Shown here: positions 19,262-20,332 of the stretch, in pieces
How positions within the stretch are numbered: position 1 is the stretch's first letter
Layout of the letters: every line of letters begins with the position of its first letter
From: a virus
Lineage: Duplodnaviria; Heunggongvirae; Uroviricota; Caudoviricetes
IMG/VR virus record: IMGVR_UViG_2627853638_000001
Span: 1 to 25,512 of that record
Length of the DNA: 25,512 nt
Direction: 5' to 3' (one strand)
Translations under genes and position numbers: made by a program
Notes under the pieces: generated by a model
Told to the model about the DNA's origin: nothing
What the model saw: only the letters and a program-made list of their open reading frames with translations
Databases searched by the model: none

Positions 19262-20332
19262 TTACCCCCTGAAGCCCGGCGGAATTTCGTTATCCGGTTC
19301 AGAAATATGATTCACACAACGCTGGTTGTTCGTGCCGCTTACCGGGAGCAACCAGGGGTTCTCAAAATTCCGGTCCGGTCCAAAAAACGTCGTCGCTCGC
19401 TGAACAAATTCCGTTCCCGTTTTCCCGGTAGCCGCCAGGTATCTTGCGTAACGCCTCACGCCATCCAGCATGGCCTCTGGTGGCACCCCCTCGCGTAATC
19501 TGGCCTTCCAGGCACTGAAAGCGGATTTCTTCGGGTTTGCCCCGGCACGCAACGGGTACTCCCGCCAGACCTGTTCGAACACATCCGGATAATCCACTCG
19601 TCCCACAGACTGCCCGGTGTTTTCCGGGACTACCCGATCGGCTTCCCGCTGAATGGCGGAATCGGCTTCAGGCTGCTGCAGTTGGTGTGATTGCTCCGGA
19701 CTTGCGGTCATCGCCTGCTGCACAGCGCCCGAATCGGCTTTCAGCGCATACGCTGAATCGGCTTCCGGTGTCGTGCCTGCTGGCTGACCAGGATTGACGG
19801 TCTGAACATCCCCTGCCTGGTTCGTGGCGTTTTTTACGCCATGGACCATAGTGTTTTGATCTTCTTGATCTGTATCTTTATCTGTATCTTTATCTGTCGT
19901 GACTCGTCGTGACATGTGCGTGACATATCGTGACGCGCCGTGACAATCGCCATTTTGTTCCCGCTTTCTTTCCCTCTCTCGCTGCGCCCTCTTGCGCTCT
20001 GCAGGAGATTTTGCGGTTTGCGAAATATTGCCGTTGTCCTCTTTCAGCACCTGGCGTTTTTCCCATCCAGTGATTAAATCACCATCAAGTACCCGCCCCT
20101 GCATCGTCTGCAAAATTGAATCAATTACCTCTTCTGTCACGTCGAGCGCACTTGCCAAATCTTCTGTCGTGACATCAATGTGACCTCGCGTGACATTTCG
20201 TGACGCGCTCACCAGGAGGTGGATATACACTGCCATCACTGTTGCAATTGGCTGCCCTGACACCCTGGCAATTGTTCGCCACTTAGGGTCATTTGGCATG
20301 TCATGCCATAATCTGAGCCAGGCGTTAGCCAT
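19262..20332 (-). CDS. Putative replication initiator or replisome-organiser protein (YdaU/DUF1376-like) with embedded iterons
   Basis: Position after the ydaS/ydaT-like genes mirrors Rac ydaU. The N-terminus MANAWLRLWHDMPNDPKW... and two in-gene CGTGAC repeat clusters support an origin-carrying replication gene. Confidence 0.4.
   Translation of the reverse strand: MANAWLRLWHDMPNDPKWRTIARVSGQPIATVMAVYIHLLVSASRNVTRGHIDVTTEDLASALDVTEEVIDSILQTMQGRVLDGDLITGWEKRQVLKEDNGNISQTAKSPAERKRAQRERERKREQNGDCHGASRYVTHMSRRVTTDKDTDKDTDQEDQNTMVHGVKNATNQAGDVQTVNPGQPAGTTPEADSAYALKADSGAVQQAMTASPEQSHQLQQPEADSAIQREADRVVPENTGQSVGRVDYPDVFEQVWREYPLRAGANPKKSAFSAWKARLREGVPPEAMLDGVRRYARYLAATGKTGTEFVQRATTFFGPDRNFENPWLLPVSGTNNQRCVNHISEPDNEIPPGFRG
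19897..19944. repeat. Iteron-like cluster 1: five (C)GTGAC repeats at 10-11 bp spacing, preceded by a tandem ATCTGTATCTTT repeat (19869-19897)
   Basis: tcgtgac-tcg-tcgtgac-atgt-gcgtgac-ata-tcgtgac-gcg-ccgtgac; the repeats fall in different codon phases. Confidence 0.55.
20167..20204. repeat. Iteron-like cluster 2: four (C)GTGAC repeats at 10-11 bp spacing
   Basis: tcgtgac-atcaatgtgac-ctcgcgtgac-atttcgtgac. Confidence 0.5.

Follow-up and report, generated by a model that had tools for sequence, protein, structure and literature searches.

The replication origin of phage lambda, ori-lambda, consists of iterons and an AT-rich tract in the central part of the O gene; Shiga toxin (Stx) phages carry six iterons, as compared with four in lambda, which adds 13 residues (PMC7466680). 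Likewise, oriL of phage SPP1 lies inside gene 38, and comprises repeats bound by G38P and an AT-rich DNA-unwinding element (PMC5737612, PMC6316719), while the Rac prophage contains an active origin, oriJ (PMC3945230). We have analysed a stretch of 25,512 nt from a tailed phage (IMG/VR record IMGVR_UViG_2627853638_000001; hereafter, the window), which includes a lambdoid replication-initiator gene with two arrays of short direct repeats, designated clusters A and B. We consider it probable that these arrays are iterons for the N-terminal domain (N-domain) of the initiator itself and that, with an adjacent AT-rich tract, they form the replication origin of a lambdoid prophage inside its initiator gene.

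Phages Tritos, Evi and vB_EcoS-689R5 contain genes 98–99% identical to this one, annotated as replication protein, replisome organiser or primosomal protein I, and the product matches phrog_3729, 'replication initiation protein' (E = 2e-255; PHROGs). Homologues and the annotation of phage Tritos place the likely true start at the ATG at 20332 (MANAW...). Of 5,426 complete genomes of Escherichia coli, 2,699 contain the gene in whole or in part, and there are relatives in prophages of hosts that include Pseudomonas, Bordetella, Serratia and Aeromonas. An iteron origin within a gene is a known layout, and this initiator family is common but uncharacterised; judging from the sequence, what is unusual here is that the region coding for the predicted DNA-binding domain contains a second iteron cluster.

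The locus resembles lambda in that the candidate origin is placed in the initiator gene, between the N-terminal DNA-binding and the C-terminal recruitment parts, and in that an AT-rich tract lies on the transcriptionally downstream side of direct arrays of initiator sites. Iteron number adds residues in both systems, with six copies instead of four giving 13 more amino acids in the Stx phages and seven more here. The gene order is also common to both (repressor, cro, cII-like gene, initiator and then a Ren-like gene), with ren coming after O and P in lambda. However, lambda iterons are 18-bp sites spaced 20–24 bp apart in one cluster, whereas the locus examined here has 6–7-bp cores, 10–11 bp apart, in two clusters separated by about 260 bp. 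Additionally, lambda has a P-type loader gene downstream, unlike this locus, where the next gene is DUF977/Ren-like, and unlike phage Tritos, which is devoid of a loader.

As in SPP1, direct repeats and an adjacent AT-rich tract are found within the initiator gene, binding by the gene's own product having been shown for SPP1. SPP1 contains a second site, oriR, 13 kb away, whereas a scan of phage Tritos found none; SPP1 also encodes its own loader and helicase, and the phage considered here encodes neither. The origin of Staphylococcus aureus pathogenicity islands (SaPI) has two sets of iterons flanking an AT-rich region, with a helicase as initiator, and the ori and crr sets of P4 are kilobases apart. 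These elements share with the locus the occurrence of short iterons in two separate sets, recognised by the element's own initiator, putatively so in our case. In SaPI, however, the AT-rich region is located between the sets, whereas here both sets are upstream of the tract and inside the coding sequence of the initiator. By analogy, the locus is best read as functionally similar to lambda ori/O and to SPP1 oriL/G38P and, by the tests run, as a member of neither protein family.

Two arrays of direct repeats within the initiator gene

An earlier note on this DNA, made by reading the sequence, had reported five and four copies of (C)GTGAC at 10–11 bp spacing, in two clusters about 270 bp apart, with a tandem repeat beside them. 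Sequence reading and a pattern search confirmed this description. In cluster B, CGTGAC starts on the plus strand at positions 19898, 19908, 19919, 19929 and 19939 (spacing of 10, 11, 10 and 10); in cluster A, GTGAC starts at 20169, 20180, 20190 and 20200 (spacing of 11, 10 and 10), and is preceded by a C in three of the four copies. The distance between the clusters is 270 bp from start to start. Tandem Repeats Finder recovered the tandem repeat, with a 12-nt unit in 2.9 copies (19863–19897), as well as a 10-nt period in 4.9 copies (19896–19945).

Besides the nine direct copies, we found a single inverted copy that had been overlooked (Table 1). It encodes D-V-T at the turn of the predicted helix-turn-helix, and occurs at the same place in nearly all homologues with GTCAC-type cores; in a locus with GTAACG-type cores (L029), this place is occupied by GTTAC.

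On the gene (minus) strand, the GTCAC cores are in codon phases 2, 0, 1, 0 in cluster A and 1, 2, 0, 2, 0 in cluster B. The cores thus occupy different codon phases, as had been claimed, and indeed all three. The accompanying claim, that the encoded peptide is non-repetitive, holds only in part, because the dipeptides SR, VT and (G/C)H recur.

The repeats are maintained by selection on the DNA

The chance controls kept the protein sequence fixed and varied only the codons. When synonymous codons were permuted inside the open reading frame (ORF), GTCAC appeared on average 3.0 times (standard deviation 1.4), as compared with the nine copies seen (P(≥9) = 5e-5). Resampling codons from E. coli usage produced a mean of 1.8 copies, with a maximum of seven in 20,000 trials. 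Moreover, no other 5-mer in the whole window forms chains of at least four copies at 10–11 bp. The earlier note had named beforehand a shuffled-sequence control as a possible refutation; when run, it put the motif density above chance (P ≤ 5e-5) and, since the synonymous-codon controls reject chance, it supports the observation.

We also examined synonymous sites of residues conserved in at least 90% of 22 homologues, from genomes of 34–69% GC. The share of the commonest synonymous codon was 0.96 within the cores (n = 12) and 0.52 elsewhere (n = 47; Mann–Whitney p = 1e-7), and conservation of the synonymous sites of cluster A was 0.91–1.00 across these homologues. Even high-GC hosts retain the codons TCA (Ser; a rare codon), GTC (Val) and CAC (His). 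Copy number also changes by whole units: E. coli relatives L002 and L003 (84–88% identical) and L005 contain six copies in cluster A, as compared with four in the window, and the difference between L002/L003 and the window is an indel of 21 bp, exactly two units, with invariant cores and variable spacers. The periodicity had been attributed to selection at the DNA level, and these frozen synonymous sites and whole-unit copy changes, together with the joint switching of cores described below, bear this out. The repeats are non-random and are kept by selection on the DNA itself.

It is hardly credible, therefore, that the arrays have no function as DNA and result from chance, slippage or the coding of a conserved or repetitive peptide. 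This explanation could draw on the residues encoded by the cores (SRNVTRGH..VT; H..SR.VT), which are invariant in the protein alignment of the homologues, and on the location of cluster B in a low-complexity linker. Nevertheless, three reading frames are used for one and the same hexamer, fixation of synonymous positions is confined to the cores, chance is rejected by the codon controls, and two clusters encoding different peptides change their core together. Several 'invariant' residues of the initiator family are probably fixed by this constraint on the DNA and not by protein function, which matters for reading conservation in this family.

Both clusters change their core together across homologues

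The comparative sample consisted of 39 genome loci and 160 viral contigs, reduced to 91 non-redundant genes in which both clusters are present. For the N-domain, homologues number more than 770. A first scan of viral contigs returned near-identical E. coli copies only, with the same repeat copy number in 72 of 73, and a second scan was seeded with distant members. Both clusters persist in the 91 non-redundant loci, and 441 of the 503 spacings within clusters are 10 or 11 nt. The number of copies varies from two to six in cluster A and from two to nine in cluster B, and the clusters are separated by 168–350 nt; among homologues, three to five copies were seen at the position of cluster B.

We distinguished four core types, GTCACG, GTAACG(C), CGAACGC and TGTGACGC. 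The cores of clusters A and B were GAACGC in both clusters of 32 loci, GTCAC in both of 23 loci, GTAAC in both of about four, and TGTGACGC in both of one locus; in genes where both clusters could be typed, there was no cross-type pair. Peptide constraint cannot explain this joint change, because clusters A and B encode different peptides. Conversely, as far as the sequences tell, it is what should be expected if one specificity-determining protein reads both sets of sites.

A search for residues that discriminate core types outside the segments encoded by iterons gave no clean recognition-helix signature. The differences between types are mostly in the loop encoded by iterons, in the turn of the helix-turn-helix and in the arm following the wing.

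A different binder for the arrays, either a host factor or a phage regulator (the CII/YdaT-like, Cro-like or DUF977/Ren-like protein) acting in partition, packaging or exclusion, is in our opinion quite improbable. Plasmid centromeres such as parC of R1 do contain short repeats one helical turn apart in two clusters. However, the arrays accompany the N-domain in Gamma-, Beta- and Alphaproteobacteria alike, next to differing sets of neighbouring genes, and the core is not a DnaA box. The core also differs between related enterobacterial hosts, being GTCACG in E. coli and GTAACG in Enterobacter and Pantoea, and such a switch between close relatives argues against a conserved host factor. Besides, phage Tritos integrates and does not carry partition genes.

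In two loci from Serratia/Pantoea (L039:3001-4191 and L041:3001-4302), a domain with a GIY-YIG-like motif (YVYYV...GISxNPWAR) is inserted at the usual position of cluster B. No recognisable iterons were found at this insertion, just ACTACG/CGTAGC repeats.

Cluster B adjoins an AT-rich tract at a module boundary

In the direction of transcription, cluster B is immediately followed by an AT-rich tract that constitutes the candidate DNA-unwinding element (Table 1). It is built of GATAAA/GATACA units, includes the tandem repeat GATAAAGATACA (2.9 copies) and two GATC sites, and encodes DKDTDKDTDQEDQ. The 60 nt following the last iteron are 53–73% AT in 22 of 22 homologues, versus 29–58% for the rest of the gene; in L021, from a genome with 69% GC, the tract is 60% AT and the rest of the gene 29%. 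Asp residues in the tract are encoded by GAT in 79 of 84 cases in the 22 homologues. The average over the 91 loci is 69% AT for the 40 nt that come directly after the last iteron. In L017, although an insertion has moved cluster B away from cluster A by 90 nt, its contact with the AT-rich tract is kept.

Homology between the window and L002/L003 breaks right after the AT-rich tract. Beyond the break, the C-terminal domain encoded by L002/L003 is another one, DnaT-like (PF17948), with a lambda-P-like gene after it, and we found a P-like gene only in variants with this other domain. Hence, N-domain, iterons and AT-rich tract form a unit that is recombined with alternative recruitment modules, a pattern also seen in the O genes of lambdoid phages. 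In the complete 46-kb genome of phage Tritos, three or more cores within 60 bp occur only at the clusters of the initiator gene, and a scan of this whole genome revealed no other cluster or candidate origin. The comparison supports the suggestion of the earlier note that this is an in-gene origin as in lambda O, since the tract always follows cluster B, at a linker and module boundary as in ori-lambda and SPP1 oriL.

The earlier note also considered an autoregulatory binding array. More generally, the arrays might be regulatory, acting through autoregulation, as a roadblock of transcription or translation, or by titration, with the initiator or another phage protein as the binder and with replication starting elsewhere. 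Plasmid Rep proteins commonly autoregulate via their own sites, and cluster A is early in the gene (nt 134–170), is followed by the inverted copy and, in the AT profile, has no adjacent AT-rich tract. Against this, the early promoter region is more than 800 bp away from the sites, which are located 130–440 nt into the gene and coincide with no promoter match above chance; a scan for promoters and terminators between 19200 and 21300 returned counts at chance level. Additionally, cluster B is invariably joined, at a module boundary, to an AT-rich tract that persists in spite of genome GC, the full genome of phage Tritos contains no alternative to these clusters, and the layout agrees with that of proven in-gene origins. 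A regulatory array thus fits less well than an origin, and we regard it as unlikely.

In ori-lambda, a palindrome stands beside the AT-rich region, and the imperfect inverted repeat at the border of our tract (Table 1) resembles it. Many homologues have a small GC-rich palindrome 41–62 nt after the last iteron. We did not retain a conserved inverted repeat beyond the tract, as in ori-lambda, because stems were just marginally longer than in control windows (5.3 versus 4.7 bp) and the common CCCCC..GGGGG doubles as coding sequence for a PPxPPxG peptide.

A predicted DNA-binding domain and a presumed recruitment module

An AlphaFold2 model built from 66 homologues predicts an N-terminal winged-helix-like domain, a basic helix, a long disordered stretch and a C-terminal helical domain (Table 1). 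The helices of the N-domain span residues 4–13, 18–27, 31–47, 58–65 and 69–79, followed by a hairpin (80–91), with the helix-turn-helix formed by 58–65 and 69–79. Cluster A corresponds to codons 45–57, at the end of helix 3 and the loop ahead of the helix-turn-helix. Cluster B corresponds to codons 132–147, in the disordered linker, and with the AT-rich repeat encodes residues 132–160. With cluster A in a loop region and cluster B in a disordered linker, the arrays sit where the protein would tolerate sequence imposed by the DNA.

Foldseek searches of the PDB had as best matches winged-helix regulators of the MarR, CAP, ArsR and GntR types, all of them weak (E ≥ 0.6) because the query was the whole 358-aa model. 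A profile search of PDB sequences yielded only weak DnaT matches, to the alternative C-terminal domain.

The C-terminal region matches phrog_1701, 'DnaD-like helicase loader' (E = 2e-62), and is presumed to be a module for recruitment of the host replisome. The last 24 residues (19262–19333, ..SEPDNEIPPGFRG) match the C-terminus of DnaT (E = 7.5e-4) and are identical to Rac YdaU in 13 of 19 positions, the pattern ..PD..IPPGFRG being common to YdaU and the initiator. The C-terminal domain of DnaT contacts PriA and filaments on single-stranded DNA (PMC13377028). From this sequence similarity, the tail could be a shared peptide for docking to the host primosome.

Relationship with known initiator families

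Annotators at NCBI and of the phage genomes label the initiator gene 'phage replisome organizer', and PHROGs gives remote matches to families of replisome organisers (phrog_4880, E = 2e-5). We rejected assignment to the SPP1 G38P type (TIGR01714/Phage_rep_org_N), for which the score was 15.4 bits (E = 0.016) against a cut-off of 49.8, with no Pfam match in 66 members.

The gene had also been compared to the Rac ydaU type, and this assignment was not borne out: there was no Pfam match to DUF1376, and BLASTP against K-12 YdaU aligned just the last 19 residues and the linker. The N-domains are unrelated, and only the AT-rich element and the C-terminal tail are common to both genes. The neighbourhood is also alike, with a repressor, a YdaS/Cro-like gene, a YdaT/CII-like gene, the initiator and DUF977; in Rac, however, ydaU is followed by the DnaC-like ydaV, unlike here.

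A comparison of iterons with Rac ydaU had also been proposed. Like the gene in the window, Rac ydaU has direct repeats in mid-gene, in this case four, followed by the same AT-rich element, AAAGATACAGATAAAGAT. The repeats themselves are different, being AACAGATGTTCAA-like and spaced 33, 33 and 12 nt. In E. coli K-12 (L204:4472-4660), the four AACAGATGTTCAA-like repeats precede AAAGATACAGATAAAGAT and a run of CCCCCCC..GGGGG; these repeats and the AT-rich element may be the sequence basis of oriJ, as a candidate. The occurrence of the AT-rich tract in both genes suggests that interchangeable, site-specific N-domains are combined with one common origin core.

A candidate in-gene origin and its proposed operation

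Under the favoured reading, in which the arrays and tract form an in-gene origin recognised by the N-domain, the initiator would be expressed by rightward early transcription from the promoter on the cro side. Its N-domain, which the structural model points to as the binder of the cores, would place one monomer on each 6–7-bp core per helical turn, on one face of the DNA, building up a nucleoprotein array over cluster B. From about 260 bp upstream, cluster A could extend this complex, loop onto it or titrate the initiator. Strain from the array would open the neighbouring AT-rich tract, so that the tract would melt and replication would start at the arrays and the tract. The C-terminal domain, with its DnaT/YdaU-like tail, could then bring in the helicase-loading machinery of the host; recruitment of the helicase in this way is conjectural, a primosome-type route being possible.

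The role of cluster A allows for a variation on this scheme, namely a truly bipartite origin with cluster A as an auxiliary site, either an enhancer that forms loops or a handcuffing or titration site limiting initiation, and with site and protein specificity mechanically coupled. Since cluster A encodes the loop just before the helix-turn-helix, a change of core would simultaneously rewrite a surface loop of the binder. We see this as a tentative possibility.

Several points weigh against an in-gene origin recognised by the initiator. No Pfam family was found for the N-domain, in the window protein or in any of the 66 homologues, and its DNA-binding role is based on a predicted fold with weak Foldseek matches. 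Membership of the lambda O family was rejected (no Pfam match to Phage_rep_O; hhalign probability 0.07%), and hhalign of the family profile with G38P was negative, in a comparison of low power with a single-sequence template. Of the two peptide patterns by which genome loci were retrieved, one is encoded by the iterons themselves; the other pattern and both viral scans are independent of them. Core types follow clades, which implies few independent switches. Cluster A, located in the region coding for the DNA-binding domain and 260 bp from the tract, is superfluous to a simple lambda model. Our literature search found no paper on iterons or the origin of this initiator family or of the 'primosomal protein I' phage genes. 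Lastly, there are no clear iteron arrays in L031, L033, L038 and L161, from AT-rich hosts (Ventosimonas and Entomomonas). These four loci retain the N-domain and long runs of GATAAA, up to nine units, and have either degenerate cores or sites elsewhere.

The in-gene origin remains the reading that we favour. Its mechanism would not surprise a specialist, and its value would lie in the origin map, the four specificity types and the residues fixed by the DNA. The map is precise, with two iteron arrays, an unwinding tract and a module boundary, and the core types supply four natural specificity variants for swaps. The arrays are also a likely determinant of incompatibility or exclusion between co-resident prophages.

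In phage Tritos the initiator gene is the sole replication gene, with no homologues of P, DnaC or DnaB in its genome, and the prophage in the window has no P-like loader gene either. Tritos-like phages apparently replicate with one gene and without a helicase loader, which makes them a simple system for helicase capture by an initiator with a DnaT/YdaU-like tail.

Genomic context and other features of the window

The initiator gene is located in a lambdoid immunity and replication region, whose features are given in Table 1. Rfam returned no RNA family at the initiator locus.

Table 1. Positions in the window of the initiator gene, its repeats and domains, and the neighbouring genes
Feature	Position	Strand	Remarks
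Replication-initiator gene	19262..20338	-	358 aa from GTG at 20338
Cluster A, upstream iteron array	20168..20204	-	Four direct (T/C)GTCAC(G); gene-strand spacing 10, 10, 11 nt
Single inverted core copy	20136..20141	+	33 nt downstream of cluster A in gene direction
Cluster B, downstream iteron array	19898..19944	-	Five direct GTCACG; gene-strand spacing 10, 10, 11, 10 nt
AT-rich tract, candidate DNA-unwinding element	19830..19897	-	65–70% AT; AT profile and Tandem Repeats Finder
Imperfect inverted repeat	19818..19848	.	Perfect core TGGCGT-N5-ACGCCA; borders the AT-rich tract; place in origin uncertain
N-terminal winged-helix-like DNA-binding domain (predicted), aa 1–100	20039..20338	-	AlphaFold2 predicted local distance difference test (pLDDT) 91–98
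Basic helix	residues 112–129		AlphaFold2
Disordered stretch	residues 130–227		AlphaFold2
C-terminal helical domain and DnaT-like tail, aa 228–358	19262..19655	-	AlphaFold2 helices 251–319
DicA-like repressor	21160–21579	+	
Cro-like protein	20826–21152	-	
CII/YdaT-like protein	20404–20829	-	
DUF977/PHROGs 'Ren-like exclusion protein' gene	18799–19221	-	Directly after the initiator

Two identical copies of IS1 (InsA and InsB ORFs), inverted with respect to each other (17262–17959, plus strand; 21911–22608, minus strand), bracket a 3.9-kb segment with the immunity and replication genes. The ydfA–dicB region, expected after the repressor from the phage Tritos genome, is missing, and so the prophage in the window is rearranged or decayed. 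The genome locus that best matches the initiator is from Shigella flexneri. Three Rfam families scored above the gathering threshold elsewhere in the window, all on the minus strand: CssrB, a chromosome-encoded small RNA of Shigella (6987–7166), IS009 (6027–6246) and the sok antitoxin RNA (16108–16283). Taken with the IS1 copies, these matches point to a chromosome of Shigella or a close relative. A tandem repeat of 60 bp, with 2.2 copies and 77% matches (7627–7757), lies inside an ORF of 547 aa (7294–8937) and is unrelated to the putative origin.

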